A stretch of DNA of 64,000 nucleotides, taken from Candidatus Micrarchaeia archaeon (GTDB lineage: Archaea; Micrarchaeota; Micrarchaeia; Burarchaeales; Fermentimicrarchaeaceae). The stretch lies in NCBI GenBank assembly GCA_038871515.1, contig JAVZHX010000001.1, forward strand, positions 397,638 to 461,637, read 5' to 3'. The translations under genes were made by a program, and so were the position numbers. How positions within the stretch are numbered: position 1 is the first letter of the stretch; each line of letters begins with the position of its first letter. Below, one piece after another: positions 5,647 through 46,991 of this stretch. Under the pieces are notes generated by a model. That model saw nothing but the letters and a program-made list of their open reading frames with translations, had not been told where the DNA came from and ran no database searches.

Positions 5647-5721
5647 TTAGTTTTTGTTGGATGTGTTTATTAACCCATGCGAAGCGCATTGGATATTTAT
5701 ATTTTCTGTCTAATTAATATT

Positions 5722-20231: not shown

Positions 20232-20872
20232 TTTCTCAACTCCTGAAGGATGGGGATGAGCTCCTTTATAGCAGTTATATTGTAGTCCGCGTTGTTTTTC
20301 TTTTTTGAGAGAAGGACAGTGGTTATACCAGCTTCTTTTGCTGGTTCAATGTCTTTCTCAACGCTATCCCCAACCATCACAACATCATGTGGTTGCATTC
20401 TCAGTTTTTTCAAAATAGAAGAGTAGAATTTTTTTGTTTTTTTCGGAGTGACAAAAACATAATGGAATAGGTTATGGAGTCCTAGGCGTATTAGCTTGTC
20501 CCATTGCTTTATCGCCCTTCCCTCAGAAGCAACGCAGATTGTGTAGCCCTGCTCGCGGAGTTGAATAACTGTTTTCGGCACGTCTGGGAAAGGGAAGATG
20601 CTGGCTTTTGTTTGGTGGTATGCGACAACTCCTGCTGCAATTATTTTTGGTTCTGATTTCTTTCCAAGCTCGCGCAGCAGAGCGTTGAAGTGTTTTGGGT
20701 AATTCGGTCCGTATTTGTTTATTATTTTCAGAAGTTTTCTGTAAGCAGCTTCCTCATCAACATCCAAGCCAGCGGCGATCATTGCGTTTAATGCATTCTT
20801 TCTAGCAAGCTCAGCAAATTCAGAGGAGGGAAAAAGTGTGTTGTCAATGTCAAATAATATTGCTTTAACCAT
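20228..20872 (-). CDS. HAD-superfamily hydrolase
   Basis: The ATG at 20872 gives MVKAILFDIDNTL. The C-terminal motif is MVGDSVEKDIEPAKEAG. Overlaps the polB stop by 8 nt. Confidence 0.8.
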   Translation of the reverse strand: MVKAILFDIDNTLFPSSEFAELARKNALNAMIAAGLDVDEEAAYRKLLKIINKYGPNYPKHFNALLRELGKKSEPKIIAAGVVAYHQTKASIFPFPDVPKTVIQLREQGYTICVASEGRAIKQWDKLIRLGLHNLFHYVFVTPKKTKKFYSSILKKLRMQPHDVVMVGDSVEKDIEPAKEAGITTVLLSKKKNNADYNITAIKELIPILQELRK

Positions 20873-23249
20873 GCCAGTCACCCAGAACGGATTGCTTTCC
20901 TCCAAATACCAAATCCTCCTTCTTAACTCCAAGCTCTCGGAGAATTTTTAGAACGGCTGGTATAACCTGATGTTCAATATAGTAAACTGCATCATAGTCT
21001 TTTGCAAGCTCTGCTGGAACTGCTTTTTCAGAGATGCTTGCTCCTTTCTTTGTGATTACGTAGCCAACAAGCGAGCCCTCCTCAACATGTATTCCTGCGC
21101 TGAGCGCTTTCTTCGCAGCCTCAAGCTCAGGGGAGGTAACCTCATATTTTCCGATGCTTTTCTTTAATTGAGTGTATATAACAAGCTCGTCAAGCGGTGT
21201 TCTTCCTTCCCTCAGCTCATTTATTTTATCCCTCACTATTTTCAGGGCTTTCTCCTTGCTTCCTTCCTTGAGAATTGCCTCAAGCACCTGCTGCTGAACT
21301 TTTTTTGCAACTCCCGCCCAGTCCCTTCTCACAAGCTCAAAGCCACGTATTTTTATCCTTCCATCCTCTCCAATTAATGCGTATTTCTTCTTCGCTCCTT
21401 TTGCCTCTGATTTCTTGCTAACGAAAACCCCGCGGGAATAGAACCCTTCAAGCTCAAGCTCCATTTTCTCAGGAAGCTCATTGTTTATTTTTTTCACAAA
21501 TTCAAGCGCATCCTTCTTTGTTTTCTCTCCAAGCAACAGCATTAAAGAATCTGTATCGCCGTATAGAACTTTGAAGCCAGCTTCCTCTGCTTTTCTCATT
21601 GTTTCCTGTATATAGTGCCTTCCCCAAGCAGTTGTGCTCTCGCCGGCTTCTTTGGAATACCAGCGGGAGCGTGGGTAGAGCAGATAGCCATAGAAGGAGT
21701 TTGCAGTTATTTTCAGTGCCTGTTGCTGTGCGTCAAGCTGGATGTATTCCTCTGTCCCTGGCTTCATGGACTTCATCTTTTTCTTAATCTCTGCTCTTTT
21801 TTGCAGAAGCTCCTCAAGCACTTTTGGGATGAGCCCCTTCTTCTTTTTGCAGAAGCGGTGCCCAACTGGTGAAAGATAGGAGTCCTTTCCACAGCAGGAG
21901 CAGTTCAGAGTGAATGGGTCAACGTTGTGCGAGATGATTATAGATGGATATAGGGAGCGGAAGTCAAAAACAGCCAAATTTTCATAGATGCCTGGCTCAG
22001 GCATTTTCACAAACGCTCCAACTGCTGGCGAGGCAGCCCTTGCAGCAATCTCCTCCTCCTTTGGCTGGTTTGGCACAATGATGTTCTCCCAGTGGGCCCT
22101 GTTGATGAGGAGCTGCTCAACAATTGTTCCTGTTGATGAGCCGCAGATGTCAAAGAGGGGAACTTTGGATAGTTTGGAAATTTCAAACTCCATTGGGAGG
22201 AGCTGTTCCGCAAGCTCCTTAACTGCAACAGCATCATTTAATGAATACTCGGCAAGCTCCCCACATTTTTTTTCATCATCCCAGTACTTCCAGATTTCAA
22301 TTTTTGGGATTGATTTTTTGGTTTTTCCAGTAAGCTCGGAGTAAACTTCTGAGAGTGTGAATTGGAATGTTTTTAATGCTCCGATGGTTGCGAGGAAGCG
22401 GATAATGTGAAATAAATCTATGTGAACTCTTCCTGTTATTTTTGCTTTTGTTATTAACCCTCTTCTGTGCAACCTGAAGCTTGAGCCATCCCTCCCAAGC
22501 GAGAGTTGTGTTTTCAAAACAGCTGCCCTCTCCTTCAAGTATGGTAAATCAAACTGGCTGGAGTTGTAGCCGATGAGAATTTCGGTGTTTGTTTCCTTTA
22601 CCAGCTGGCAGAATTTCTCAATCATTTCCTTCTCATCCTTGCAGTGAGTGATGAATGGTTTGTTTATTCTTTTTGTTGTAAAGACACCTGAGGAGGAGTT
22701 GGCGTAGCTTATCATCAGTATTGGGTCCTTGGTGGGGCGAGGGGCTCCTTGTGGGTTGTAGGTTTCGATGTCAAATGCAAGTGTGTTGAATTTCAAGGGA
22801 GTTTCCTGTGTTTTTGTTATTCTTTTTAACTCCTTTCCTTCTCTCTCAAATTTTATTGTTGTTAGTGGGGTGAGCCCTTTGTCTATTATGTATCTTCTTG
22901 TGAATGGGATGTTGTGCTCGTAGGTTGTGCCGAGTTTTTTAACTTCCTCGCGTATAACTGGCACGTGTCTTGGGTGGTTGCAGATTATCTTGAGCAGCTC
23001 CTTTTCCTTCCCAAGAAGAATTTTTCTAACTTTTTCAACTCTTTTTGGCTTGATTGTTTCGTTTTTTTCCTCAACTACGAGCTGTTCAATAGTTTTTTTT
23101 GTTGAGTCAATTTCATCAGCATCCAAATAGAAATACGGCTCAAAGTTGCTGTCGTATATCCTGAAAAATCTTTTTCCTTTGAAAACTAGTGAGATAACCG
23201 GTTTGTTGCCCTTTGTCTTGTAGGTTACGTCAATGAGGATGCCTCTCAT
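20865..23249 (-). CDS. polB: family B DNA polymerase
   Basis: 794 aa. Exo motifs FDIET and YNSSQFDLPYL, polymerase motifs DFRSLYPSII, KITANSFYGY and YGDTDS. No intein. Confidence 0.95.
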   Translation of the reverse strand: MRGILIDVTYKTKGNKPVISLVFKGKRFFRIYDSNFEPYFYLDADEIDSTKKTIEQLVVEEKNETIKPKRVEKVRKILLGKEKELLKIICNHPRHVPVIREEVKKLGTTYEHNIPFTRRYIIDKGLTPLTTIKFEREGKELKRITKTQETPLKFNTLAFDIETYNPQGAPRPTKDPILMISYANSSSGVFTTKRINKPFITHCKDEKEMIEKFCQLVKETNTEILIGYNSSQFDLPYLKERAAVLKTQLSLGRDGSSFRLHRRGLITKAKITGRVHIDLFHIIRFLATIGALKTFQFTLSEVYSELTGKTKKSIPKIEIWKYWDDEKKCGELAEYSLNDAVAVKELAEQLLPMEFEISKLSKVPLFDICGSSTGTIVEQLLINRAHWENIIVPNQPKEEEIAARAASPAVGAFVKMPEPGIYENLAVFDFRSLYPSIIISHNVDPFTLNCSCCGKDSYLSPVGHRFCKKKKGLIPKVLEELLQKRAEIKKKMKSMKPGTEEYIQLDAQQQALKITANSFYGYLLYPRSRWYSKEAGESTTAWGRHYIQETMRKAEEAGFKVLYGDTDSLMLLLGEKTKKDALEFVKKINNELPEKMELELEGFYSRGVFVSKKSEAKGAKKKYALIGEDGRIKIRGFELVRRDWAGVAKKVQQQVLEAILKEGSKEKALKIVRDKINELREGRTPLDELVIYTQLKKSIGKYEVTSPELEAAKKALSAGIHVEEGSLVGYVITKKGASISEKAVPAELAKDYDAVYYIEHQVIPAVLKILRELGVKKEDLVFGGKQSVLGDWHG

Positions 23250-23287: not shown

Positions 23288-23938
23288 ATGAGGGGAAGGT
23301 TGAATGCTGCAAGGAAAGCGCTGGAGTATGTGAAAGAGGGGATGGTTGTTGGTTTGGGGACGGGCAGAACTGCGGAGTTATTTGTAAAGTTGTTGGGGAG
23401 GAGTGGGAGGAAAGTTATAGGGGTTCCGACTTCAAAAAGAAGCGAGAGGGTTGCTAGAAAGGTTGGGTTGGTTGTGAAGGAGTTGAACGAAGTGGAAAGG
23501 ATTGATTTGGCGGTTGATGGGGCGGATCAGGTTGATAAAAAATTGAATTTGATTAAAGGGTATGGTGGCGCTCTGTTCAGGGAGAAGGTTGTTGATTATG
23601 CGGCAAAAAAGTTTTTGGTTGCTGTTGATGAGAGCAAGTTGAGGGAGGAGCTGGGGGGGTGGGTGCCGTTGGAGGTTGCTCCTTTTGCAGTTGAGCAGGT
23701 GAGAAGGGAGTTGAGAAGAAGGGGAGTTGAGTCAAGGGTGAGGAGGAAGGGGAGGAGAGTGTTTGTGACTGATAATGGTAATTTGATTGTTGATGCTTAT
23801 TTTGAAAAAGTGAAAAAACCGGAGAAGGTGCATGAGATGTTGAAGGGAATCCCTGGGGTGATTGAAACTGGTTTGTTTTTTGGAAAGAAGTGGAAGGTGG
23901 TTGTGGGAAGTGAGAGGGGGGCGAGAGTTTTAGGGTGA
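23288..23938 (+). CDS. rpiA: ribose 5-phosphate isomerase A
   Basis: Contains VVGLGTGRTA, AVDGADQVD and KGYGGALFREK. Confidence 0.85.
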   Translation: MRGRLNAARKALEYVKEGMVVGLGTGRTAELFVKLLGRSGRKVIGVPTSKRSERVARKVGLVVKELNEVERIDLAVDGADQVDKKLNLIKGYGGALFREKVVDYAAKKFLVAVDESKLREELGGWVPLEVAPFAVEQVRRELRRRGVESRVRRKGRRVFVTDNGNLIVDAYFEKVKKPEKVHEMLKGIPGVIETGLFFGKKWKVVVGSERGARVLG

Positions 23939-28004: not shown

Positions 28005-28226
28005 ATGAAGTACAAAGTTGAGATAACCTACAAACCAGGCGTGCTAGACCCTGAAGGAAAATCAACCCTTGATGCATTGAAAACACTCGGCTTTAACGTT
28101 TCCAACGTCCAGAGCATGAAAGCATACATAATTGAATGCAACTACGATGAGAAAAAAATTGATGAGATGTGCAGGAAACTTCTCTCCAACCCAATAATAC
28201 ATAACTATTCAATTCAAAAACTATGA
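28005..28226 (+). CDS. purS: phosphoribosylformylglycinamidine synthase subunit PurS
   Basis: 73 aa with KPGVLDPEGKSTLDALKTLGF. Sits immediately upstream of purL with overlapping stop/start. Confidence 0.85.
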   Translation: MKYKVEITYKPGVLDPEGKSTLDALKTLGFNVSNVQSMKAYIIECNYDEKKIDEMCRKLLSNPIIHNYSIQKL

Positions 28227-30589
28227 GGTGGCGCATGCAGCACAAAGCAGATTTTCCATTCACCCTTTACTTCATAAACCTACGTGACGCTTCAGACGAG
28301 GATTTGAGAAGAATAAACTCCGAAAGAAACCTCTCGCTTTCTTTGGAGGAAATGAGAAGGATAAAGGAGCACTACAAAAAACTTAACAGGGATGCAACAG
28401 ACGTTGAACTGGAGATGATCGCCCAAATCTGGTCCGAGCACTGCTGCCACAAAACTCTCCGCGGAAACTTCATCGATTCAAAAGGAAAAGTAGTTGCAAG
28501 AAAACTTCTGAAAAGCACAATAATGAAAGCAACAGAAAAGCTCAAACTTCCCTGGTGCCTGCTTGTTTTCAAAGATAACGCAGGGATAGTTGACTTTGAT
28601 GGAAAGCACGCGCTTGCTTTCAAAGTTGAAACTCACAACCACCCCTCCGCGCTTGAACCATTTGGAGGAGCATCAACAGGAGTTGGCGGCGTCATCCGCG
28701 ACATTTTGGGCGTTTGGGCTGACCCAATTGCAAACACAGACGTCCTCTGCTTCGCTCCTCTCAACTTTCCGGAAAGCAAACTTCCAAAAGGAGTTAAATC
28801 GCCCCGCTACCTATACAACGGCGTTATCGCTGGCATAGGCTCATACGGAAACAACATGGGAATCCCAACAGTAAACGGCTCAATTCACTTTGATGAAAGC
28901 TACTTGGGAAACCCGCTTGTTTACTGCGGCTGTGTTGGGTTGTTACCTAAAAACAAATTTATCAAAAACACCAAGCCAGGCGACTGCATTCTACTTGTTG
29001 GGGGCAGAACTGGAAAAGACGGAATTCACGGAGTCACCTTTGCATCCGCCGAGCTTTCTGAAACTTCTGAAGAGGTTTCTCGCTCAGCAGTTCAGATAGG
29101 CGACCCAATTGAAGAGGAGAAGCTGAAAAGAGCAATCCTCCGCGTGAGGGATGAGGGGCTTGCAACCGCAATAACCGATTTAGGTGGAGGAGGGGTTTCC
29201 TGCGCTGTCAGCGAGATGGCTGAGCGCTCCGGATGCGGTGCAACCGTTGAGCTTGACAGGGTTCCTTTAAAATACCCAATGAATACCCCCTGGGAGATAT
29301 GGCTCTCCGAATCACAGGAGAGAATGCTTCTCTCAATTCCAGAAAGAAACCTAAAAAGAACCCTTGAAATTTTTGAGGATGAAGACGTTGAGGCAACCGT
29401 TATTGGAAGGTTCAACAACACAAAACAAATTGTCGTTCTCTACAAAGACAAGCCAGTTGCCAATCTCTCAACAAACTTCCTTTACAACCTTCCCTATGCA
29501 ACCACCAAAGTAAAAAAACCAAATCAAAAACTCAGGGAGCCAAACTTCAAACAACCAAAACAACTTGGCAAAATACTACTGCAACTGCTTTCTCTGCCAA
29601 ACACCGCAAGCAAACAATCTGTCATTCACACCTATGACCATGAGGTGAAAGGACACACAGTAATAAAACCACTCCAGGGAGCTTTTCTTGACGGGCCGGG
29701 TGATGCGGCAGTGATAAAACCACTCCCCACCTCCTTCAAAGGATTTGCGCTTTCAAATGGGTTCAACCCAAACTATGGAAAGATAGACTGCTACTGGATG
29801 GCTGCCTCTGCAATTGATGAAGCAGTAAGAAACAACATCGCAGTTGGGGGAAGGAGAATCGCATTGCTTGATAACTTCTGCTGGGGCTCCCCAAAGAAAC
29901 CACAGCTTGCCTACCAACTTCTTGAGGCATGCCGAGCGTGCAGGGATGTTGCGCTTGAGCTCAAAACTCCCTTCATCTCAGGAAAGGACAGCTTATACAA
30001 CGAAACAAATGGAAAGCCAATCACCCCATCACTGCTCATCTCAGCGCTTGGGATCGTGCCTGACGTGAGAAAAGCGGTTACGATGGATGCAAAGCAGCCA
30101 GGCAGCTACATTTACCTGATTGGGGAAACTCACAAGGAACTTGGAGGCTCTTCCTATTACTCCATTTTCAAAAAACTCGGTGCTTCTGTGCCAAAGCTCA
30201 ACCCAAAAAAAGCAAGAAGAATTTTCAACTCACTCACAAAAGCAATTGACAAACAACTCCTCCTCTCCTGCCACGATTTATCTGAGGGTGGTTTGGGAGT
30301 TGCTGCAGCAGAGATGTCCTTCGCAGGCAACATTGGAATGGAAATCAACCTGCAACAACTCAACTCCAAACTGCGAGATGACTACCTCCTCTTCTCAGAA
30401 TCAAACTCCCGCTTCCTTGTAGAAGTTTCATCAAGCAACAGAAACAGATTTGAGAAACTTATGAGAGGAATTCCGTATTTCAGAATTGGAAAAACAACCA
30501 ACTCGGATGAATTCACCGTGATTGGGAATGATGTTTTAATTTCAGAAAAACTTGCCACCTTAAGAAAGGCATGGCAAACTCCGCTGTGA
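28223..30589 (+). CDS. purL: phosphoribosylformylglycinamidine synthase II
   Basis: Contains WSEHCCHKT, VETHNHPSALEPFGGASTGVGGVIRD and GKDSLYNE. Confidence 0.95.
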   Translation: MRWRMQHKADFPFTLYFINLRDASDEDLRRINSERNLSLSLEEMRRIKEHYKKLNRDATDVELEMIAQIWSEHCCHKTLRGNFIDSKGKVVARKLLKSTIMKATEKLKLPWCLLVFKDNAGIVDFDGKHALAFKVETHNHPSALEPFGGASTGVGGVIRDILGVWADPIANTDVLCFAPLNFPESKLPKGVKSPRYLYNGVIAGIGSYGNNMGIPTVNGSIHFDESYLGNPLVYCGCVGLLPKNKFIKNTKPGDCILLVGGRTGKDGIHGVTFASAELSETSEEVSRSAVQIGDPIEEEKLKRAILRVRDEGLATAITDLGGGGVSCAVSEMAERSGCGATVELDRVPLKYPMNTPWEIWLSESQERMLLSIPERNLKRTLEIFEDEDVEATVIGRFNNTKQIVVLYKDKPVANLSTNFLYNLPYATTKVKKPNQKLREPNFKQPKQLGKILLQLLSLPNTASKQSVIHTYDHEVKGHTVIKPLQGAFLDGPGDAAVIKPLPTSFKGFALSNGFNPNYGKIDCYWMAASAIDEAVRNNIAVGGRRIALLDNFCWGSPKKPQLAYQLLEACRACRDVALELKTPFISGKDSLYNETNGKPITPSLLISALGIVPDVRKAVTMDAKQPGSYIYLIGETHKELGGSSYYSIFKKLGASVPKLNPKKARRIFNSLTKAIDKQLLLSCHDLSEGGLGVAAAEMSFAGNIGMEINLQQLNSKLRDDYLLFSESNSRFLVEVSSSNRNRFEKLMRGIPYFRIGKTTNSDEFTVIGNDVLISEKLATLRKAWQTPL

Positions 30590-30593
30590 TTAT

Positions 30594-31397
30594 ATGAGAA
30601 TATGCATAATGAGAGTTGCTGGAACAAACCGCGATTATGACGTATACGAAGTTCTAACTTACCTAGGCGCATCCCCAGATGTTGTTCACATGAATGAATT
30701 CACCAGAGGAAGGAAAAAACTGAGTGACTACGATGCATTCATCTTCCCAGGAGGCTTCTCCTACGGAGACAGAATACGCTCAGGCGCAATCTGGGCAAAG
30801 CAGCTCATCTACAAACTTTCAGCTGACTTCAGAAAAATTGCTGAGGAAGGAACACCAATACTCGGAATATGCAACGGGATGCAGGTGCTTGTTGAGGCTG
30901 GTTTGATACCTGGCTTGAATGGAATAAGCGAATACCCAGAAGCAGCAATGGCAGTCAATGCGTCATCTAAATTTGAGTGCAGGTGGGTTTATTTAAAAAA
31001 CTACTCAAGGGGAAACTGCCTATTCACAAGGGAAATACCAAGAAACACAGTGATAAGAACACCTGTTGCCCACGGAGAAGGACGCTTCCTTCTTCCAAAA
31101 GAAAAGGAGAAAGCAATACTCCGTAAACTTGAGAGAAACGATCAGATTGTTTTCCGCTACTGCGATGAGAAAGGCAACCCAGCCAAAGGGAAATACCCGC
31201 TCAACCCAAACGGCTCCTTCTCAGACATAGCTGGAGTTTGCAACCCTCAGGGCAACGTTTTGGCTTTCATGCCTCACGCAGAGGATGCGTGCTTCTTCTG
31301 GCAGCACCCAGATTGGACAAGGAGGAAACTTAAGTTTGAGACAGACGGAATTCTCCTCTTCAAAAATTTAGTATCTTTCCTCAAACACAAAAAATAA
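30594..31397 (+). CDS. purQ: phosphoribosylformylglycinamidine synthase I (glutamine amidotransferase)
   Basis: Contains FPGGFSYGD, GICNGMQVL and MPHAE. Confidence 0.9.
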   Translation: MRICIMRVAGTNRDYDVYEVLTYLGASPDVVHMNEFTRGRKKLSDYDAFIFPGGFSYGDRIRSGAIWAKQLIYKLSADFRKIAEEGTPILGICNGMQVLVEAGLIPGLNGISEYPEAAMAVNASSKFECRWVYLKNYSRGNCLFTREIPRNTVIRTPVAHGEGRFLLPKEKEKAILRKLERNDQIVFRYCDEKGNPAKGKYPLNPNGSFSDIAGVCNPQGNVLAFMPHAEDACFFWQHPDWTRRKLKFETDGILLFKNLVSFLKHKK

Positions 31398-31435: not shown

Positions 31436-32809
31436 GTGGTTCTCTTGCCCAAAATACAGGAGATACCCTCTCTTAAAGAATGGGAAAGAGTTGGCTCTCA
31501 CAGCCACATCAAAGGACTTGGAATACAAAATGGTGAAGTCCTTCGTATTGCCTCAGGGCTTGTGGGACAGGTTGAAGCAAGAAAGGCAGCCAGCATAATT
31601 GTTGAGTTAGTGAGAAAAGGAAGGTTTGCCGGCAGAGCAATACTTATGGCAGGACCCATGGGAACTGGTAAAACTGCGCTTGCACTTGCAATCGCAAAGG
31701 AGCTTGGAAGGGATGTGCCATTCGTTCAGATATTTGGCTCTGAAATTTACTCCTCCGAAATCAAGAAAACAGAATTCCTGATGAGAGCTCTCAGAAGAGC
31801 TATTGGAGTCAGAATTCACGAGATGCGCACAATTTATGAAGGCGAGGTAACCTACCTTGACTTTGACATGGTGCCTCATCCATACAACCCATACCAAAAA
31901 ATCCCCAAAAGCGCAACAATAAAACTCAAAACAAAGGACGAGGAGAGGCAATTCAAGGTTGACTCCTCATTTGCCCAAAGTATAATTCAGAATGGAGTTG
32001 AAATTCACGATGTTATTCAGATAGACTCAGAAACAGCCAGAATAGCAGTTATTGGCAAAAGCAAGGATTACAAACCAGATGAAAAGGAAAAAGTTGACTT
32101 AACAAAACAACAGATTGTTGAAGTTCCAAAAGGCAAAGTTCAAAAAGAAAAGGAATTCATCTACACAGTTACCCTTAATGATTTGGACATGGCGCGCGCA
32201 AAGAGAGGAAGCCTCTTCTTCTCCTTTTTCGGTGGAGGGAAGGAGGAGGAGCTCAGCGAGGAGGACAGGGCAGCTGTTGACGAGGAGGTTAAAGCGCTGG
32301 TGAATGAGAAAACAGCAGAGATAATACCGGGAGTTCTATTCATAGACGAAACTCACATGCTTGACGTTGAAGCTTTCTCCTTCCTCAACAGAGCAATTGA
32401 ATCTGAGCTTGCGCCAATAATCATTCTCGCAACAAACAGAGGGATAACAAAAATAAGAGGCACAGAGCTTGAATCACCTCACGGAATTCCAAGAGATATG
32501 CTGGATAGAATGCTGATTATAAACACCTCTCCATACTCAAAAGAGGAAGTCGCCGAGATAATAAAAATAAGATGCAGGGAGGAGAAAGTTCAGCTGAGCA
32601 ACGATGCATTTGAGTATCTAACAAAGATTGGCGTGGAGAAAAGTTTAAGGTATGCAACTCAGCTTCTCGCTCCCGCTTCAGAGCTTGCAGAGAAGGATAA
32701 GAAGGAGACAATAGAGAAGAAGCACATCGAGGTTGCTGAGAAGCTTTTTGTTGACGTTGAAAAATCCATCGAGCACGTTAAAAAGTTCGAGAAGAGCTTT
32801 ATGGCATAA
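31436..32809 (+). CDS. RuvB-like (TIP49/Pontin-Reptin type) AAA+ ATPase
   Basis: HSHIKGLG, Walker A GPMGTGKT, a roughly 220-aa insertion, then Walker B GVLFIDETHMLD and ATNRG. This is the TIP49 domain order. Confidence 0.85.
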   Translation: MVLLPKIQEIPSLKEWERVGSHSHIKGLGIQNGEVLRIASGLVGQVEARKAASIIVELVRKGRFAGRAILMAGPMGTGKTALALAIAKELGRDVPFVQIFGSEIYSSEIKKTEFLMRALRRAIGVRIHEMRTIYEGEVTYLDFDMVPHPYNPYQKIPKSATIKLKTKDEERQFKVDSSFAQSIIQNGVEIHDVIQIDSETARIAVIGKSKDYKPDEKEKVDLTKQQIVEVPKGKVQKEKEFIYTVTLNDLDMARAKRGSLFFSFFGGGKEEELSEEDRAAVDEEVKALVNEKTAEIIPGVLFIDETHMLDVEAFSFLNRAIESELAPIIILATNRGITKIRGTELESPHGIPRDMLDRMLIINTSPYSKEEVAEIIKIRCREEKVQLSNDAFEYLTKIGVEKSLRYATQLLAPASELAEKDKKETIEKKHIEVAEKLFVDVEKSIEHVKKFEKSFMA

Positions 32810-32849: not shown

Positions 32850-33434
32850 ATGGCTAACGACGGCAAGATTATCGTATCTGTTCACTGCGATGTTATCTGG
32901 CAGGCTGCCCACGTGAAGTTTGTGAGAAGGAGAGGGAGAAGGTATTACGAGGGCAATCTGGATAACGTGGTGTGCGTTGCAGCCGTCCTCCGCTCAGTTA
33001 TGCCACGCGTGAGGGACAGAAAAGTAAAATTTTACTTCACAAATGCAGAGGAAACAACAATGAAAGGAGCAAGAAAAGTTATGAGAAGGGAGGGGAAAGC
33101 CCTCTACGTTGTTGTTGACGTAACCCAAGCAGCACGCAGCTCCGATGTTAATATTGAGTGGATGCAGCACATTAACAGAAAAGCACTAAAAAAGGTTCTC
33201 ACAAGAATCCCAAACCTGAAAGTTGGCTTCAAGACAGGCCACCCAGATGAAACAGCCATTTACGGAACAAAATACCCAACCTTCTCAATCACTCTCCCAC
33301 TGCAGGGAAACATGCACGGCAAATCCAAAGTTTCCTTCTGGAAGGTGAAGCGCTTCGGCTTATCCCTCGTTGAAATTCTAAGAAGGATACGAATGAACTA
33401 CGATAGAATTTGTGAGTTTCAGAAATCAGTATAG
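32850..33434 (+). CDS. hypothetical protein, possibly a minimal M28/M42-like metallopeptidase fold
   Basis: The ordered residues HCD...NLDN...NAEE...VVDV...H resemble co-catalytic metallopeptidase ligands. Weak. Confidence 0.3.
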   Translation: MANDGKIIVSVHCDVIWQAAHVKFVRRRGRRYYEGNLDNVVCVAAVLRSVMPRVRDRKVKFYFTNAEETTMKGARKVMRREGKALYVVVDVTQAARSSDVNIEWMQHINRKALKKVLTRIPNLKVGFKTGHPDETAIYGTKYPTFSITLPLQGNMHGKSKVSFWKVKRFGLSLVEILRRIRMNYDRICEFQKSV

Positions 33435-35783
33435 ATAACCCCAAGTATACAGCATATCGCTATCGCTTATCCACTTCTCCCCAATATCCGTTCTGTAAAA
33501 CATGTTTGGAATAAGAATGTTTTTCACCCTTGAATACGCCTGCTTTCTCGCCTCCTCAACAGTCGTCCCAGAGCCGGTGATTATCAACGCATAGCCTGAC
33601 TGCCCAGCCAACCTCCAGTCATCCTCAACAAGCTTCACATCCCCAAGATGAACCCCATCAAGATTTGGCTTCTTGAAAATTATCGTTGCATCCTCCGAAT
33701 ACCTTTTGAAAGCAGCTGGGTCGCTGAATGGGAAGGGTGGGACTGCAACTACAATACATATCTGAAATCCTTTTTTCGTTTTCAGCTCAGTTGCCTCTCC
33801 TTTTGCAAGCGAGTAAAGAAAATCACTCCACCTGCTCGTCACTCCCTCAATCTGCAAACTTATAGTGGGGTAACCAAAACGCATGGTCCACTCCAATGGA
33901 TATATCCCTCTTGAATTCACAATACAATTCAAATCCACATACCCAACATAATTTGATGCAACAAGTGCTTCCTTCATTTTAAGAAGAGTTTCGTTGAAAA
34001 GCTTGTTTGGGGGGCACCAGAACCCAAGCGTATTGCCACAAAAAACAGGTTTCCCATCCTTCCTGATATACATCACATGATTTGGAACCTCAGCGCAATA
34101 AACCTTTCCGTTGTATGGAATCTCCTTCCAGTCTCTCGCATCCAACCAAGAAACAGTTTTCTGCACCCTCTCAATAATCTCATACTGCAGCTTGTCAGAA
34201 GCAATTATCCTGTCGCCAATTTTCCCCTTTCTTGGTTTTCTTATCTTAATCAACCCCACATGACCAATTTTCAGTAACAGTTCTTGAATATTATCTGCAA
34301 GTTTCTTTGATGTTGTATAAAAAACCCGGTAACCTTTTTTATAATGATACGCATCGCCAAGTGCAAAAGCATCTAGGAAAAGCTTTATCTGTCTAGGAGA
34401 TGCTTCCCTCACATATTCTGGGATCCATTTATCAGAAGCCTTCCCAAACTGCTTCAAGTACCTAGCAAGTTGGGCGCTGTGTATCGCAAACCTATCCTTA
34501 CTAACTACCACTTTGAATGGTAGTTTATTAATTATCCTAAACACACTAGCCCGTGTCCTCTTCTTCGCTTGTGCGATAGTAACAGTATTTCCTGAAGAGC
34601 AGCCTTCGCTTAAATAAAGCCCCAGGAATTCAAGCCAACAATCCATCTTAATTCTCATTTGCTGAAGTTGCACTACGCATTTATGATTCGTTCCTTTAGT
34701 ATAGATGTACTCCGGAAGATAAAAGTATTCTTCCTCAACTCCCTTCCAAATGCCCGTTCTTGGGATTACAAATTTGGTTGTTAACTCCTTTGCTTTAACG
34801 AATCTCCACTTATTTCCACCAGTTCTATAAGTCTCCCCCTCCATCCCAAACATATTATGATCTGGCGTTACTGTCAAAGAAACTGCCCTGTTGGTTATAT
34901 CAATCATCCTTTTATGGTGGTCATACTCTACTATCGCAGTTGGTTTTTGATACTCAATCGCAAAAGTACTAGGATTGAGTGTGCAAATTTCATCGCTGTA
35001 TGAAAGATTCTTGAACAACTTCCAACCCACCTTTGTCAAAACCTCTGTTTTGTCATCGTAACACCCCATCTCGCCACAGTTCGGCCCCAACCCACCTGGA
35101 AACAACTTCTTGTGCTCGAAGTTTATGAATATTGGGTAGACAAAATCCCTCCCATTGAAGAAAACCCCAACTGCAACTTCCACGCCCTGCACAAACTTCT
35201 GTAACTGGAACACGCTAATCTTCTTTGACCAGCTCTTCTTGTAGTGCTCCAAAACATCTATCACATCTTTTCCATCCTCTTCCTGTCCAACAAAAAGTAA
35301 CTCCTTCTCATTCTGAGCTCTTCCACTTGGTTTTATCACATACCTATCCGGATTCTTCTTAACAAACTCTATAGCATCATCAAATCCGATAAAATCCCAA
35401 TGGGGTATCGTGTTCACTCCCGCTTTCTTCAACTCCTCCTGCCCAAACTCCCTATCATCCTCAAGCTTATCAGTATAAACAGAACCGCCAACAACTAACT
35501 TACCTTCCTTTCTTAAATCCTCAGCAATCTGCCCAAAACCGATATCGTCAAAGCAAATTACGTCAGCCCAGTCTTCCCACCCCTTCCAATCCTCGCATTT
35601 TTCAACAAACCCATCACAAACATCCTTCTCAGACTTCTCCTTTATGTAATACTTTACCTCACTTCCCTCCTTCTTCACCTGCCAAGCCAAATCGCCAATC
35701 AAACCCTCGTATGAAACAAAAAGAAACTTCAAAGGCTTCTTCTCCTCCTTTTTCTCTTCAACCTGGTTGTTTGATGGGCTCAT
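33426..35783 (-). CDS. purD: PurD-like ATP-grasp ligase (phosphoribosylamine-glycine ligase family) interrupted by an intein
   Basis: The exteins (441 aa) show the PurD order: LIGDLAWQVKKEG, YVIKPSG, GPNCGEMG|..|T, LEWTMRFGYP, TVEEARKQAY. Confidence 0.75.
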   Translation of the reverse strand: MSPSNNQVEEKKEEKKPLKFLFVSYEGLIGDLAWQVKKEGSEVKYYIKEKSEKDVCDGFVEKCEDWKGWEDWADVICFDDIGFGQIAEDLRKEGKLVVGGSVYTDKLEDDREFGQEELKKAGVNTIPHWDFIGFDDAIEFVKKNPDRYVIKPSGRAQNEKELLFVGQEEDGKDVIDVLEHYKKSWSKKISVFQLQKFVQGVEVAVGVFFNGRDFVYPIFINFEHKKLFPGGLGPNCGEMGCYDDKTEVLTKVGWKLFKNLSYSDEICTLNPSTFAIEYQKPTAIVEYDHHKRMIDITNRAVSLTVTPDHNMFGMEGETYRTGGNKWRFVKAKELTTKFVIPRTGIWKGVEEEYFYLPEYIYTKGTNHKCVVQLQQMRIKMDCWLEFLGLYLSEGCSSGNTVTIAQAKKRTRASVFRIINKLPFKVVVSKDRFAIHSAQLARYLKQFGKASDKWIPEYVREASPRQIKLFLDAFALGDAYHYKKGYRVFYTTSKKLADNIQELLLKIGHVGLIKIRKPRKGKIGDRIIASDKLQYEIIERVQKTVSWLDARDWKEIPYNGKVYCAEVPNHVMYIRKDGKPVFCGNTLGFWCPPNKLFNETLLKMKEALVASNYVGYVDLNCIVNSRGIYPLEWTMRFGYPTISLQIEGVTSRWSDFLYSLAKGEATELKTKKGFQICIVVAVPPFPFSDPAAFKRYSEDATIIFKKPNLDGVHLGDVKLVEDDWRLAGQSGYALIITGSGTTVEEARKQAYSRVKNILIPNMFYRTDIGEKWISDSDMLYTWGYLY
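34032..35063 (-). mobile_element. 344-aa intein with LAGLIDADG homing-endonuclease domain inside the PurD-like gene
   Basis: Begins with Cys (GEMG|CYDDKTEV), has block B TVTPDHN, DOD motifs LEFLGLYLSEGCS and KLFLDAFALGDAY, and ends VFCGN|T. Confidence 0.85.
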
Positions 35784-36464: not shown

Positions 36465-37109
36465 TCACTCGAACCCCTTCTTCTTCCCCCACCCCACCGT
36501 ATCCTGCGTCCACTCCAAAATAACGCTCTCCTGCTCCTTTGTTATCAACTTCTTTGCAGTTGCCCTCTTCACAAGAGTGCTTATATCTGTCAGTGGAATC
36601 AGCTCCACCCCCTCCTGCCTGAACCCCTCCTCTGCTTTCGGCATCTGATAAGTGAATATCACAACGCAGTGAGTTGGGTTTGCGCCAGCAGCTCTAACTG
36701 CTCTTGCAGTGTGAAGCGAGCTTCCCCCCTGGCTCACCAAATCCTCAACCACCACCACTCTTGCTCCTTTCTCCAGCTTCCCCTCAATCAAGTTCTGCTT
36801 CCCATGATCCTTCTCCTCCTTCCTCACATAAACCATCGGTTTCTTTATTCTGTCAGCCAGCCATGCCGCATGCGGTATTCCAGAGGATGCAACAGCTGCA
36901 AGGCAATCCACATTCCTCAACCCAATCCTCTCCCTCACAACCTTTTCAAACGCATCAATTACTTCTTCTCTCTCCTTCACGTGCGACATCAGCAATCTAC
37001 AATCCGTGTAGATTGGGCTGAGAATGCCTGACGCGTATCTATATGGTTTTTCCGGGCTCAGCGTCACAGCCCCTATCTCCAAAAGTATATCCGCAATTCT
37101 CTCCTTCAT
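36465..37109 (-). CDS. pyrE: orotate phosphoribosyltransferase
   Basis: Contains SGILSPIYTDCR and the PRPP loop VVVVEDLVSQGGS. Confidence 0.9.
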   Translation of the reverse strand: MKERIADILLEIGAVTLSPEKPYRYASGILSPIYTDCRLLMSHVKEREEVIDAFEKVVRERIGLRNVDCLAAVASSGIPHAAWLADRIKKPMVYVRKEEKDHGKQNLIEGKLEKGARVVVVEDLVSQGGSSLHTARAVRAAGANPTHCVVIFTYQMPKAEEGFRQEGVELIPLTDISTLVKRATAKKLITKEQESVILEWTQDTVGWGKKKGFE

Positions 37110-37110
37110 A

Positions 37111-37905
37111 CTACTCCCTCCAACCATAATATTCATTCAAACTCACCTTCTTCCCATACTTCAACCTTGCGAACCTTCCAAACTCGCTCATTTTTGAAAG
37201 TTTTTTTGATGAGAAAACAGGGCCGTCAGCGCACACCCTGTAACCATCCACCGCACAGCTCCCGCAAACTCCAAAACCACAGTGCATGTATCTTTCTAGG
37301 GAGAGCTGGCACTCCACTTTGTTTTTTCTACAAATCTCAAAAACTTTCTTCAACATCAGCTCAGGGCCGCAGCCATAAACAACATCAACCTCCCCAACCA
37401 CCTCCTCAAGCAAATCAGTTGCAAACCCCTTTCTCCCAAGCGAACCATCATCCGTTGCATACCTCACCTTCCCAACCCTCTCCATCCTTTCCCTGAAAAT
37501 CAGCTTTCTTTTGCTTGAAGCACCCATTATGATAATTGGTTTCCTCTTCGCCAGCTTCTCCGCAAGCGGTGCAAGCGGTGCAACTCCAACTCCACCAGCA
37601 ACTATGCACTGTCTCTCCCCAACAACCTCAAACCCATTCCCATACGGGCCTCTAACCCCAATAAAGCTTCCCTCCCTCAACCTGAAAACTTCCTCTGTGA
37701 ACTTACCTCTCCTCTGCACCGTTATTGCTGCCTGTCCATTCAAATACGAAAGCGCAAATGGTTTCTCATCAACCCCAGGAAGCCAAACCATGACAAACTG
37801 GCCAGGAATTGCACCAGGCACTCCCCTCTCAAAAAACACCGTTCTTACCTCCTCACTCTCCTCCACAACTTTCCTCACTTTATTTGAAACCGGCATCTCA
37901 CTCAT
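37111..37905 (-). CDS. pyrK: dihydroorotate dehydrogenase electron-transfer subunit
   Basis: FAD/NAD fold (GQFVMVWLPG, VAGGVGVAP) and a C-terminal 2Fe-2S Cys cluster CGFGVCGSC...C. Confidence 0.85.
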   Translation of the reverse strand: MSEMPVSNKVRKVVEESEEVRTVFFERGVPGAIPGQFVMVWLPGVDEKPFALSYLNGQAAITVQRRGKFTEEVFRLREGSFIGVRGPYGNGFEVVGERQCIVAGGVGVAPLAPLAEKLAKRKPIIIMGASSKRKLIFRERMERVGKVRYATDDGSLGRKGFATDLLEEVVGEVDVVYGCGPELMLKKVFEICRKNKVECQLSLERYMHCGFGVCGSCAVDGYRVCADGPVFSSKKLSKMSEFGRFARLKYGKKVSLNEYYGWRE

Positions 37906-38809
37906 GCGCAACACCAACCAGCTCCGTCACATTTCTATAGCCATTCTCCTCCATCCAAACTTCCATCTCCTCACAAACTTTTCTGAAAATTTCAATTCCT
38001 CTGTAATAAACACCACTTGCAATTCCAACTGCAGTTGCGCCTGCCTGCATCATCTCAATCGCATCCCTTCCCTCCACAACACCACCCATCCCAAGAATTG
38101 GTATTTCAACTGCCTCATAAATGTCATAAACACATCTTACCGCAATCGGCCTTATTGCAGGACCGGAAATGCCTCCCCTCCCATAACTTAGCACTGGCTT
38201 TCTTACCTCAACGTTAATCACCATCCCAGGGCCAACTGTGTTTATTGCAGATATTGCATCCGCGCCTGCTTCCTCGCATGCCTTTGCAACAGCGCCAATA
38301 TTCAGCGCTTGTGGAGTGAGCTTTGGCATTACAGGAACTCTACCTGCAACATCCTTCACTGCAGAAACAACTTCATAAGCAAGCTTCTCGCTGCAACCAA
38401 AAACCATCCCCTCTGCTTTTGTGTTTGGGCAGGAAACATTCAGCTCAATTGCAGCTGGCTTGTGCTTTGCAACCGCCTCCCCAACCTCTCTGAACTCCTC
38501 AACAGACGCCCCATATATGCTCACAAAAACAGGTGCTTTCACCTCTTTTATTCTTGCAAGCTCCCCCTCCATTTCCTTATAACCAGGTGAGGGTAAGCCA
38601 ACTGCGTTTATCATCCCCCACTCATAAGCAAGCACAGTTGGGTTTCTGTGCCCGCTTCTCTCCCTTGGGCCGATTGACTTAAATGTAACCGCGCCTGCCC
38701 CTTCCTCAACAACTCTTTTCAGCATCTCAACGTTTACTCCCAGAATCCCAGATGAAAGCACAGTTGGGTTCCTCATCCTCGCTCCACAAAACGAGACAGA
38801 CAAATCCAT
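37898..38809 (-). CDS. pyrD: dihydroorotate dehydrogenase catalytic subunit (class 1B)
   Basis: Contains NPTVLSSG, NAVGLPSPG, ELNVSCPN and GGISGPAIRPIA. Start taken at ATG 38809. Confidence 0.9.
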   Translation of the reverse strand: MDLSVSFCGARMRNPTVLSSGILGVNVEMLKRVVEEGAGAVTFKSIGPRERSGHRNPTVLAYEWGMINAVGLPSPGYKEMEGELARIKEVKAPVFVSIYGASVEEFREVGEAVAKHKPAAIELNVSCPNTKAEGMVFGCSEKLAYEVVSAVKDVAGRVPVMPKLTPQALNIGAVAKACEEAGADAISAINTVGPGMVINVEVRKPVLSYGRGGISGPAIRPIAVRCVYDIYEAVEIPILGMGGVVEGRDAIEMMQAGATAVGIASGVYYRGIEIFRKVCEEMEVWMEENGYRNVTELVGVAHE

Positions 38810-38906
38810 CAGTTCACCCTTTAAATTATCAAAAGCAGAAAATAAAAGCCTATTGCAACCCCGTTGATAACCTAGAAGTCTGCTCCGCACCGAAATAGAT
38901 ATAAAT

Positions 38907-39636: not shown

Positions 39637-40947
39637 ATGAAGGAAGACGAGATAGCGGAAATTTTACTTGACTGGAATTTTTGGGAAAAGGAGCAACCAG
39701 CAGGAATACCCAGGCCCCTCTATCAAGATACGATAAAGAATTTCCTCAAAACAAACCAGATTATTGTAATCATAGGTGTAAGAAGAAGCGGCAAATCCAC
39801 AATAATGATGCAGACAGCAAAAACGTTAATTGACTCCGGTACTGACCCTCATGACATATTACTGGTCAACTTTGAAGATTACAGATTTTACGAGTTTTCA
39901 CTAAAACTTTTGCAACAAATTTATGATTTCTATCTTGAGAAGATAGCAAAAGGGAAGGATAGATACATTTTTCTCGATGAGGTTCACAACATCAAAGGGT
40001 GGGAGAGGTTTGTTAGGACTCTAGTAGACAAGAAGGAGGCAAAGATAATTGTTTCAGGCTCCAGCTCAAAATTAATGGGCAGGGAGCTCGCCACCCTACT
40101 CACCGGCAGACACATAAACTTGCTCGTCTTCCCACTAACCTTCAAAGAATTCCTGCTCTTTAAAAATCTAAAATTAGACAAAGAGACAGAACGTATAAGC
40201 AGAAGGAGAGAGATAAAAAAACTGCTTGCTGAATTCCTTGGATATGGTTCATTTCCAGAGGTTGTTTTGGCAGATAAGAAAGTAAGATATAAAATGCTCG
40301 TTGATTACATTGAAAGTATAATAAACAAAGACATTGTGACGAGATATAGAATAAAGGAAACGCAAAAGCTCAGAGCATTAGTCAAATTCTATATGACAAA
40401 TATAGCATCGCCAGTAAGCTTCAACAAAATAAAAAACTGGCTATCTCTTCCTTTGAGAACTGTGGAGAGGTTCTCCTACTATCTGGAAGAAGCCTATTTG
40501 GTATATTTCCTGAGAAGATTTTCCTTCAAGGTTAAGAAACAGGAAAAATCAGCGCGGAAGATATATGTTATAGACCAGGGTTTGTCAAACGCATACGGGC
40601 TCAAATTCAGTGCGAATGTTGGCAGAGTAATGGAAAATGTCGTTCTGCTGGAACTGCTTAAGAATGGCGCACAGGTTTATTACTGGAAAAGCCAAACAGG
40701 AAAAGAGGTGGACTTTGTCATTGAAGAAAACTTGAAAGCTAAACAACTCATTCAGATATGCTATGACGTGAGCGATTATAACGTAAAAATTAGAGAGGCG
40801 AGTGCTTTAATAAAAGCTTCTGAGGAGCTGAAATGCAGAAATCTTGTTGTGATCACTTGGGATTATGAATCCGAGGAAAAAATCCAAGGAGTTAAAATAA
40901 AATTTGTTCCTCTCTGGAAATGGCTTCTGGATGTCAAATCAGACTGA
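39637..40947 (+). CDS. COG1373-type ATPase (AAA domain plus DUF4143-like C-terminal domain), copy 1
   Basis: Walker A GVRRSGKST and Walker B IFLDEVHNI. The C-terminal EVDFVI...ITWDYE resembles the nuclease-like DUF4143 end. Confidence 0.75.
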   Translation: MKEDEIAEILLDWNFWEKEQPAGIPRPLYQDTIKNFLKTNQIIVIIGVRRSGKSTIMMQTAKTLIDSGTDPHDILLVNFEDYRFYEFSLKLLQQIYDFYLEKIAKGKDRYIFLDEVHNIKGWERFVRTLVDKKEAKIIVSGSSSKLMGRELATLLTGRHINLLVFPLTFKEFLLFKNLKLDKETERISRRREIKKLLAEFLGYGSFPEVVLADKKVRYKMLVDYIESIINKDIVTRYRIKETQKLRALVKFYMTNIASPVSFNKIKNWLSLPLRTVERFSYYLEEAYLVYFLRRFSFKVKKQEKSARKIYVIDQGLSNAYGLKFSANVGRVMENVVLLELLKNGAQVYYWKSQTGKEVDFVIEENLKAKQLIQICYDVSDYNVKIREASALIKASEELKCRNLVVITWDYESEEKIQGVKIKFVPLWKWLLDVKSD

Positions 40948-45722: not shown

Positions 45723-46991
45723 ATGTTATTCCACCCGATACTAAAGGAACAGAGGGAGGAGCTTGAGCAAATAGAAAGGGAAGAGAACATCATTGAACGG
45801 GATAAGCATAACGAGGCAAAAAACCTTTTGGAACACCCAAACATTCTTGCAGTTCTTGGAATTCGAAGGTGTGGCAAATCGGTTTTTTCGTATCTGCTTG
45901 CCAAAGACAGCATGGGTTATGTAAACTTTGATGATGAGAGGCTTGCCGGCTTGAAAGGACAGGAGCTTAACAACATCCTCCAATCAATCTACGAGCTTTA
46001 TGGCGATGTGAAATACCTAGTCCTTGACGAGGTTCAGAATGTTGATAACTGGGAGCTCTTTGCTAACCGACTGAGGAGAACCAAGAGGGTTATTCTCACC
46101 GGAAGCAACTCCAAACTACTTTCAGGTGAACTTGCAACACACCTCACTGGAAGATATGTGAGCATCAACCTATTCCCCTTCTCCTTCCAAGAATTTTTAA
46201 GATTTAAACGACACAAGTTGGAGGGGTTTCATACCACAAAGGAAAAAGCAATGCTCCTCACTCTTTTAAGGGAGTATTTGGAAACAGGAGGTCTCCCGGA
46301 AGCATACAAATTTGGCAAATCCATAATCGCGCGCATATATGACGACATAATCACAAAAGATCTTCTCCTGAGGTACAAAATAAAGAGAACCGCTGACCTC
46401 AGGCAGCTTGCAAGATATCTGGTAACAAACTCCGCGGAGGAGTTCACATACGGCAAACTCGCAAAAATTTTTGGGATAAAGCACATTTCAACGGTTTCCA
46501 ATTGGGTTTCATACCTTGAGAATTCCTTCCTTTTATTCAAAATTGACAGGTTTGACTTCAAGCTCAAAAAACAATTCCTCGCCCCCAAGAAAATTTACTG
46601 CGTTGATACTGGAATTATTAATACAGTTGGCTTCAAGTTTTCAGAGGATACGGGAAGGATAATTGAGAATGCAGTTGCTGTGGAACTACAGAGGAGAATA
46701 ACCTCTGCTGAGAGGAAGGAAATTTACTACTGGAAGGATCACCTGCAAAACGAAGTTGATTTTGTGGTGAAGGAGGGAAAAAGGATTACCCAGCTGATTC
46801 AGGTTGCATACGCAACTAAGAGAAATGAAATTAGGAGGAAGGAGCTCACAGCATTGGTGAAGGCAGGCAGAGAGTTAAGGTGCAGAAACCTCCTCGTGAT
46901 TACATGGGACTGCGAGCTTGAGGAGAGAGTTGGCGGATTCAGAGTAAGATTTGTTCCTCTCTGGAAATGGCTTCTTGGAGAGCCCAGATAA
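45723..46991 (+). CDS. COG1373-type ATPase (AAA plus DUF4143-like), copy 2
   Basis: Walker A GIRRCGKS, Walker B LVLDEVQNV, C-terminal EVDFVV...ITWDCE...FVPLWKWLL as in copy 1. Confidence 0.75.
   Translation: MLFHPILKEQREELEQIEREENIIERDKHNEAKNLLEHPNILAVLGIRRCGKSVFSYLLAKDSMGYVNFDDERLAGLKGQELNNILQSIYELYGDVKYLVLDEVQNVDNWELFANRLRRTKRVILTGSNSKLLSGELATHLTGRYVSINLFPFSFQEFLRFKRHKLEGFHTTKEKAMLLTLLREYLETGGLPEAYKFGKSIIARIYDDIITKDLLLRYKIKRTADLRQLARYLVTNSAEEFTYGKLAKIFGIKHISTVSNWVSYLENSFLLFKIDRFDFKLKKQFLAPKKIYCVDTGIINTVGFKFSEDTGRIIENAVAVELQRRITSAERKEIYYWKDHLQNEVDFVVKEGKRITQLIQVAYATKRNEIRRKELTALVKAGRELRCRNLLVITWDCELEERVGGFRVRFVPLWKWLLGEPR

Follow-up and report, generated by a model that had tools for sequence, protein, structure and literature searches.

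A probable full-length intein in the conserved G-rich loop of a divergent PurD-like ATP-grasp protein from a Micrarchaeia archaeon

The DNA considered here is a stretch of 64,000 nucleotides (hereafter the window) from Candidatus Micrarchaeia archaeon (assembly GCA_038871515.1, contig JAVZHX010000001.1, positions 397,638 to 461,637 of the forward strand). Its source contig derives from a hot-spring metagenome, and its nearest homologues point to a Micrarchaeota (DPANN) archaeon. On the reverse strand (-), to which the coordinates of the gene and its parts refer, an open reading frame (ORF) of 785 amino acids plus stop (33426..35783) encodes a protein of the PurD (phosphoribosylamine-glycine ligase) type that is interrupted by 344 residues. 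The N-extein (residues 1-240; 35064..35783) has a short K/E-rich tail at its N-terminus, followed by an N domain and the larger part of the ATP-grasp domain (Pfam GARS_A, 110-247), and ends with GPNCGEMG. The insertion (residues 241-584; 34032..35063) is organized as a Hint splicing domain within which a LAGLIDADG homing endonuclease is nested. The C-extein (residues 585-785 plus stop; 33426..34031), delimited like the N-extein by Pfam and alignment, contains the LEWT-MRFGYPT motif and the GARS_C domain. Its first residue, Thr585 (codon 34029-34031), is invariant in intein-free homologues and would serve as the +1 nucleophile. The native residues bordering the insertion are ...FPGGLGPNCGEMG on the N-terminal side and TLGFWCPPNK... 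on the C-terminal side. The first-pass annotation had placed an intein at residues 241-584 of a 785-residue ORF, and this segment maps exactly to 34032..35063. As argued below, it is highly probable that the segment is a bona fide full-length intein, whose conserved residues point to class 1 splicing and to homing. It lies in frame in a conserved and presumably flexible G-rich loop of the ligase (GPNxGEMG followed by Thr).

The motifs expected of an intein can be followed along the insertion. For residue counts, a hidden Markov model (HMM) of the clade to which it belongs was built and 237 complete domains were aligned; an earlier alignment comprised 57 sequences. Block A (CYDDKTEVLTKVGW; 35022..35063) starts with Cys1, the predicted N-terminal nucleophile, and C1, T6, T10 and G13 are invariant in the 57 clade members. 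Block B (...SLTVTPDHNMF; 34848..34886) contains the TxxH residues Thr66 (T in 56/57) and His69 (H in 57/57). At the other end, block F (YNGKVYCAEVPNHVMY; 34068..34115) includes VYCAEVPNH (321-329), with Cys323 at position F:4 and His329, and block G (IRKDGKPVFCGN; 34032..34067) ends with VFCGN (340-344), that is, with the penultimate Gly343 and Asn344. In the larger alignment, Cys1, the block B His and the C-terminal Asn are found in all 237 members and the block B Thr in 229, while block F is more variable (F:4 Cys in 201/237, His in 139/237). The +1 residue is Ser in 129 members, Cys in 69 and Thr in 39.

Between blocks B and F, a LAGLIDADG endonuclease domain would occupy intein residues 136-300 approximately (34164..34658). 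This extent is based on the alpha/beta pattern of an AlphaFold (AF2) model, on a Foldseek comparison and on a PDB sequence search, in which residues 143-297 match the endonuclease region of the TliVMA intein. Motif 1, LEFLGLYLSEG (residues 144-154; 34602..34634), carries Glu153 at the catalytic position, which is E or D in 56/57 clade members and is followed by the invariant G154. Motif 2, FLDAFALGDAY (residues 229-239; 34347..34379), carries Asp237, a position occupied by D in 55/57 members. A two-motif LAGLIDADG enzyme retaining both catalytic-position acidic residues is predicted. Pfam LAGLIDADG_3 (PF14528) spans residues 226-292 and scores 28.4 bits, for a gathering cutoff of 22.5. Every feature named in the first-pass annotation (a Cys right after GPNCGEMG, TPDH at 66-69, two dodecapeptide motifs, and VFCGN followed by Thr) is present where it had been placed.

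The AF2 model of the intein, built from the 57-sequence alignment, is compact and of high predicted quality, with a local confidence score (pLDDT) of 96.6 and a predicted template modelling score (pTM) of 0.93. Compared with the PDB using Foldseek, its best matches are full-length, endonuclease-bearing inteins, namely TliVMA (7qsu, E 5.6e-20), PhoVMA (7qst), PI-SceI (1vde), PI-TkoII (2cw7) and PI-PfuI (1dq3). Mini-inteins, the hedgehog Hint domain, bacterial intein-like (BIL) domains and the free-standing LAGLIDADG enzymes I-DmoI and I-Tsp061I rank lower. The model thus has a predicted Hint fold. The annotation had asked for a search for Hint-domain and LAGLIDADG_3 support, and both are available, the predicted fold being that of full-length inteins and the LAGLIDADG_3 score lying above its cutoff. 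Moreover, when the insert alone was used as query, related inteins were matched with E values from 1e-105 to 1e-24. Weak NCBIfam matches (E 1.6e-4 to 1.8e-3) were obtained with four models of large proteins: GyrA_w_intein, which is so named, and DnaB, RpoA'' and RNR, which are taken to include inteins from their length and from the position of the match. Except for the penultimate His, all the tested intein and LAGLIDADG features are present. A search of the 64-kb window with the clade HMM gave no second intein of this clade. In agreement with the annotation, which had stated that the polB gene of the window is intein-free, the 794-residue PolB (20865..23249) gives only polymerase, exonuclease and RNase_H-superfamily Pfam matches, and none to intein or LAGLIDADG models.

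Some observations weigh against an intact, active element. The canonical penultimate His is absent, its place being taken by Gly343. The Pfam Intein_splicing score is 21.7 bits, for a cutoff of 35.8 (E 1.9e-4), and TIGR01445 is likewise below threshold. The Gly following Asp237 is replaced by Ala (G238A), found in just 2/57 clade members; because this residue adjoins the second catalytic Asp, a weakened endonuclease is conceivable. Among the read and contig joints from the same or related samples, no intein-free allele was found, so that ongoing homing lacks direct support. Finally, although a metatranscriptome contig maps within the intein, its depth is very low and it could stem from DNA carry-over. 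The lack of a penultimate His, the sub-threshold profile scores and G238A would suit a decayed intein that has lost the ability to splice, in which case the gene would be either a pseudogene or the gene of an ATP-grasp protein with a permanent inserted domain. We regard such a decay as very improbable. The splicing nucleophiles and the block B residues are all intact, the 785 codons are open without a stop, and Gly is the normal penultimate residue of the clade (230/237). The AF2 model is compact and confident, and 344 unspliced residues in the active-site loop would very likely be ruinous to a protein under extreme purifying selection.

The insertion is also delimited by intein-free relatives. 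With the 441-residue extein alone as query (residues 241-584 deleted), more than 6800 proteins were matched, the best with E about 1e-266. The best matches are 84-87% identical, collinear, intein-free proteins of 438-452 residues, annotated as Micrarchaeota, Woesearchaeota or Nanoarchaeota. An extein-only search of this kind had been suggested by the annotation. In an alignment of the window protein with 11 intein-free homologues (12 sequences), the intein forms a single clean block of 344 columns, bordered by GEMG on one side and Thr on the other, both of them invariant. The closest relative on a long contig (L001, 186 kb) has an empty site in a syntenic locus, with the same gene order as the window (PyrD-PyrK-PyrE, PurD-like, 194-aa ORF, TIP49, PurQ, PurL, PurS). 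This provides an intein-free allele of the kind that the annotation had looked to in relatives. The extein DNAs of the two loci are 82% identical and 69/90 bases match around the insertion site, the L001 sequence reading GGTGAGATGGGC/ACCCTGATGTTC, where the slash marks the insertion point, here and below. The annotation had considered that the extein halves might belong to two separate genes in relatives. The lone apparent split (L009, P0123) is an artefact of an N-run in the scaffold, across which the extein-intein junction remains in frame, and a split gene was rejected.

Several database homologues end inside the intein at contig ends, which could raise the suspicion that the intein-containing gene is an assembly chimera. 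The probability of this is negligible in our estimation: the depth is even (17x) across the gene, and small contigs from a separate study cross both junctions (N-terminal, 34875-35132; C-terminal, 33998-34148), differing from the window at 0-1 positions. Moreover, the same in-frame junctions recur in many independent alleles, and the identical 785-residue protein is also present on Logan contig SRR27170999_2000. The chimera was rejected on the junction-spanning contigs from the other study. The intein-bearing database copies that stop inside the intein (P0121, P0127, P0145, P0186, P0190) are taken as contig-end truncations; assembly breaks caused by coexisting intein-plus and intein-minus strains could account for them. 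The G+C content at third codon positions is 40% in the intein and 50% in the extein, a mild sign of foreign origin.

The C-terminal Gly-Asn raises the question of the splicing chemistry. Penultimate Gly is found in 57/57 sequences of the first alignment and in 230/237 of the larger clade set, where the preceding residue is Cys or Ser in 209/237. Inteins without a penultimate His are known to splice (PMC5050341, PMC4031507). In particular, the intein of the recombination directionality factor (RDF) gp51 of mycobacteriophage Bethlehem, which has a penultimate Gly, splices completely, and changing this Gly to His slows splicing (Kelley et al., 2016; PMC5050341). An upstream His of block F can substitute for the penultimate one, earlier archaeal and chloroplast cases being cited in the same study (PMC5050341), and the window intein has a candidate for this role, His329. 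Since Gly is the norm of the clade and the Bethlehem RDF intein provides a precedent, this residue does not in itself indicate impaired C-terminal chemistry. On this comparative basis, the penultimate Gly is a lineage trait with experimental precedent, neither decay nor defect. The annotation was right in noting Gly instead of His, and its suspicion of atypical C-terminal cleavage is refined in this sense.

Conserved residues make the standard class 1 route the most likely one. After translation, Cys1 would undergo an N-S acyl shift aided by Thr66 and His69 of block B; the N-extein would then be passed to Thr585 (+1) by transesterification. Cyclisation of Asn344 would free the intein, and an O-N shift would join GEMG to Thr, giving back the 441-residue enzyme. 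Help to Asn cyclisation would most likely come from block F (His329, possibly Cys323), as proposed in the literature for inteins without a penultimate His.

A splicing route other than class 1 has nevertheless to be considered. Cys323 (F:4) could be an alternative or branch-point nucleophile, or it could form with Cys1 a disulfide acting as a redox switch, splicing then awaiting reducing conditions. Disulfide control through Cys1 is known in other inteins. The frequency of Cys at F:4 and of Cys or Ser ahead of the penultimate Gly would suit such a route, as would the absence of the penultimate His throughout the clade, by which its C-terminal chemistry is already off-norm. Moreover, F:4 Cys marks the WCT (class 3) inteins, of which it is the obligate nucleophile (Tori et al.; PMC2807308). 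These inteins are defined by the lack of an N-terminal nucleophile and by the triplet Trp B:12, Cys F:4 and Thr G:5 (PMC2807308). Class 3 membership was rejected by this WCT test: the window intein has Cys1, with Met at B:12, Cys at F:4 and Cys at G:5. Clade-wide, B:12 is Met, Leu, Val or Ile, not Trp, and G:5 is Cys or Ser, not Thr. Because Cys1 is invariant (237/237), the block B Thr and His are intact and B:12 and G:5 do not fit the triplet, class 1 is preferred over class 3. In addition, F:4 is Asp or Ser in 36/237 members, so that Cys is not obligatory there, and Cys is the second most common F:4 residue among inteins generally (Mills et al.; PMC4031507). On balance, we consider a non-class-1 route unlikely.

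The clade is very large and its distribution is informative as to mobility. When 1.84 billion representatives were scanned exhaustively with HMMER, 9413 matched at E ≤ 1e-3, of which 1769 at E ≤ 1e-30. The GEMG/T site of the window is occupied in at least nine other host-family clusters (P0122-P0125, P0127, P0128, P0145, P0186, P0190), by inteins 46-65% identical to that of the window in exteins 60-72% identical to its extein, while the nearest extein kin (84-87% identity) are intein-free. At the same site, a Nitrososphaera sp. metagenome-assembled genome (P0171; L010:712-2490) has a mini-intein of 169 residues, which has lost the endonuclease and retains blocks A, B, F and G. Among the top 150 representatives of the exhaustive scan, which served for a host survey, about 24 have PurD-like hosts, with additional insertion points: GPN/TGEMG (for example P0207), GPNTG/C (for example P0326) and LE[FWA]T/[CST]R.GYP, within the ExN-equivalent motif (for example P0248, P0249, P0253, P0254, P0314, P0320). 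The clade is thus found at at least three host-family positions besides GEMG/T, two active-site motifs being hit, and two proteins (P0199, 1123 aa; P0207, 1152 aa) have two inteins apiece. The annotation's proposal of an intein in a PurD-like ligase holds, with the refinement that many metagenomic alleles of the host family carry inteins, at the same and at other sites.

Outside the PurD-like family, the clade resides mostly in virus-like hosts: C1 peptidases, ThyX, MCM, DNA ligase and prohead protease. To these can be added RpoB-like giant proteins and NrdD-like proteins, both recognized by the junction motif, and a terminase-like protein, recognized by eye from its sequence. The nearest annotated phage relative is the intein of Prevotella megaphage Lak-A1 (33% identity), the gp3 inteins of cluster C mycobacteriophages being 25% identical.

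The endonuclease would presumably cut the intein-free GEMG/T coding site, and repair would then copy the intein in (homing). The scattered occupied sites, the empty sites of the nearest kin and the mini-intein derivative together form the usual picture of a homing cycle, for which they are indirect evidence. Separately, a free-standing ORF of 252 residues with LAGLIDADG_3 similarity (L005:1103-1861, (-)) lies about 6 kb from an intein-free PurD-like gene on a Woesearchaeota contig. On an IMG/VR viral contig (L116:4001-5800), a PurD-like gene is broken by an inserted ORF with stop codons on both sides. By eye, this ORF resembles an HNH/AP2-type endonuclease. An intron and a free-standing homing endonuclease gene are both possible, and either would be a further mobile element in this gene family.

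The identity of the host protein is a more delicate matter. On the one hand, it resembles PurD in fold and sequence. GARS_A (44.2 bits) and GARS_C (37.7 bits) both pass their Pfam cutoffs on the extein, and its PDB sequence matches are all PurD (E 3e-20 with the single sequence, 1.8e-29 with a family profile). When the spliced protein was modelled with AF2 (pLDDT 74) and compared using Foldseek, 15 PurD structures matched it over the full length ahead of other ATP-grasp enzymes. The insertion loop (residues 225-238) is of low confidence in this model, which may reflect flexibility. On the other hand, the signatures of the enzyme deviate: GARS_N gives no match, the equivalog TIGR00877 fails on the intein-free sequence (99.6 bits for a cutoff of 288), and PS00184, R-[LF]-G-D-P-E-x-[EQIM], fails since RFGDPE is replaced by RFGYPT (LEWT-MRFGYPTIS in the window, LEFT-SRFGYPTIS in the family consensus). 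In the host family, moreover, the ExN Mg motif becomes ExT and GGMG becomes GEMG. These results agree with the annotation, in which the extein was described as a divergent PurD-like ATP-grasp protein.

The family is also widely shared. At 59-70% identity, it is found in GTDB representative genomes of DPANN phyla, including Woese-, Nano- and Aenigmarchaeota, of Nitrososphaerales, Nitrosopumilales, Bathy-, Mars- and Thermoplasmatota, and, among bacteria, of the candidate phyla radiation (CPR/Patescibacteria), Omnitrophota, Acidobacteria, Spirochaetota, Verrucomicrobiota and Planctomycetota. Several of the bacterial loci lie on contigs of 100-850 kb; some bin labels may be wrong. De novo purine synthesis is mostly absent from CPR bacteria and from Woese-, Nano- and Aenigmarchaeota, and a canonical purD is present in Nitrososphaerales, Acidobacteria, Verrucomicrobiota and Planctomycetota. 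Judged by these identities, the host family appears much more conserved than expected of canonical PurD. More divergent relatives, 28-43% identical and with the same variant motifs, occur on 29 putative viral contigs from IMG/VR (L091-L119). On the two viral contigs whose neighbours were checked, 9/10 ORFs have no Pfam match. A PHROGs search with the extein gave nothing.

The genomic context bears on whether the extein is the organism's genuine glycinamide ribonucleotide (GAR) synthetase (PurD, EC 6.3.4.13), divergent only in sequence, in which case the intein would interrupt de novo purine synthesis. Genes for PurS (73 aa), PurL (788 aa) and PurQ (267 aa) lie on the opposite strand of the window (28005-31397, (+)), 2-5 kb from the PurD-like gene and separated from it by a TIP49 gene and another ORF, an arrangement kept in L001. 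The window also contains genes for phosphoribosyl pyrophosphate (PRPP) synthetase (5677-6579, (+)) and for pyrimidine synthesis, including aspartate carbamoyltransferase (11395-12309, (-)) and PyrE, PyrK and PyrD (36465-38890, (-)). No second PurD was found in the window or in the fetched loci, 64 kb being too small to exclude one elsewhere in the genome. Besides the best sequence and fold matches, all to PurD, complete purine pathways including purD have been reported in some Micrarchaeota orders (PMC12892359). Against a genuine GAR synthetase stand the altered signatures described above and the occurrence of relatives on viral contigs, as well as the 59-70% identity that spans lineages mostly devoid of the pathway and lineages with a canonical purD. 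Furthermore, when the neighbours of 80 genome loci were clustered, no conserved pur neighbour was found. The neighbours specific to subsets of these loci were a SET-domain protein, a class III aminotransferase, M1 and M28 peptidases, an alpha/beta hydrolase and major facilitator superfamily (MFS) transporters. In addition, haloarchaeal proteins with the same defects were judged not to be GAR synthetases (Brown et al., 2011; PMC3261824). That the extein is the genuine enzyme is possible but doubtful, and it is the likelier case that the host is a paralogue of uncertain substrate rather than a canonical GAR synthetase.

A further-reaching proposal, which we put forward tentatively and hold to be a nearly even matter, is that the host is not PurD at all. 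It would be an uncharacterised ATP-grasp ligase of PurD fold, whose metal and substrate site has been remodelled (ExT, RFGYPT, GEMG), among the slowest-evolving of the proteins shared by archaea and bacteria with small genomes, with divergent viral copies and at least four intein positions in two active-site motifs. The conservation of the host would then explain why it is a repeated target of a clade characterized by Cys1, F:4 Cys and Gly-Asn, and the inteins would signpost an important enzyme.

Other features of the locus can be noted. The TIP49/RuvBL-type AAA+ ATPase between the pur cluster and the PurD-like gene is full-length (31436-32809, (+); Pfam TIP49, E 3e-137) and is kept in the syntenic L001. 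The 194-residue ORF that follows (32850-33434, (+)) has weak similarity to M28/M42/M20 peptidases, and is convergent with the PurD-like gene, into whose 3' end it extends by 9 nt. An M28-like protein was clustered among the neighbours in 7/80 loci, and left the top ranks after ORFs overlapping the target gene were excluded. Two paralogous ATPases with AAA_14 and DUF4143 domains (39637-40947, (+), and 45723-46991, (+)) lie less than 6 kb apart. For a DPANN-type genome, the window is rich in genes for pentose-phosphate and nucleotide synthesis, which also include a split transketolase (7252-9155, (+)) and ribose-5-phosphate isomerase (23288-23938, (+)).

In its kind, the element is an ordinary intein following well-understood rules, and what it adds is a host family. 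No open-access report was found of an intein in PurD, phosphoribosylamine-glycine ligase, GAR synthetase or ATP-grasp proteins, the supplementary tables of intein surveys and InBase being outside the search; this accords with the annotation, in which PurD was not counted among the classical intein hosts. A literature search for PurD-like proteins in archaea gave only Brown et al. (2011). That two active-site motifs of the host family have been invaded, at several positions, fits the view that inteins settle where nucleotide-binding sites are most conserved. The clade, with its Gly-Asn terminus and F:4 Cys, lends itself to studies of the way in which Asn cyclisation is aided without the penultimate His, and might yield splicing tools that are compact and thermostable. 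As to the host protein, DPANN and CPR genome annotations routinely name it purD despite its failure with PurD signatures and, judging from these, the family is probably mis-annotated. If it is not a GAR synthetase, counting it as purD in metabolic reconstructions would overstate the purine autonomy of these lineages.

Comparison with known systems places both the host and its intein. The window protein has the overall fold of canonical PurD (Escherichia coli 1gso, Bacillus subtilis 2xcl, Aquifex aeolicus 2yw2) over its full length, within the Foldseek top 15 and with TM scores of 0.58-0.72. It shares with these enzymes GARS_A, GARS_C and the motifs (D/E)HK(R/K) and GPNTGxMG. It differs from them by an identity of 16-20%, by its failure with TIGR00877 and GARS_N and by RFGYPT, ExT and GEMG. 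Similar in its defects is the haloarchaeal 'extra' PurD-like pair rrnAC0307 and Hlac_1553, in which GARS_N, the residues that bind Mg and the PS00184 Asp are missing (PMC3261824); the likeness concerns these described defects, and no haloarchaeal locus is among the best 80 genome matches to the host family.

As to the intein, the Bethlehem gp51 RDF intein is of class 1 and resembles that of the window in its penultimate Gly. Further inteins without a penultimate His include that of Chlamydomonas ClpP and those studied by Chen, Benner and Perler (2000). The class 3 inteins, such as the DnaB intein of mycobacteriophage Bethlehem, have in common with the clade the F:4 Cys, the frequency of Ser or Thr at +1 and many virus-like hosts, and they differ from it in that the clade has an invariant Cys1 and an intact block B Thr/His pair, with neither Trp at B:12 nor Thr at G:5. 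In fold, the best matches are the VMA-type and PI inteins (E 5.6e-20 to 1e-12, TM about 0.6). TliVMA (7qsu/7qss), PhoVMA (7qst), PI-SceI, PI-PfuI and PI-TkoII have, like the window intein, a Hint domain interrupted by a LAGLIDADG endonuclease with two motifs, and the TliVMA endonuclease is the sole PDB sequence match (E 1.7e-5). The window intein is only 10-18% identical to them and resides in a different host protein. Its C-terminal Cys-Gly-Asn and F:4 Cys depart from the His-Asn and F:4 Asp that the literature gives as usual for inteins. Like the one described here, these inteins sit in a conserved nucleotide-binding enzyme.

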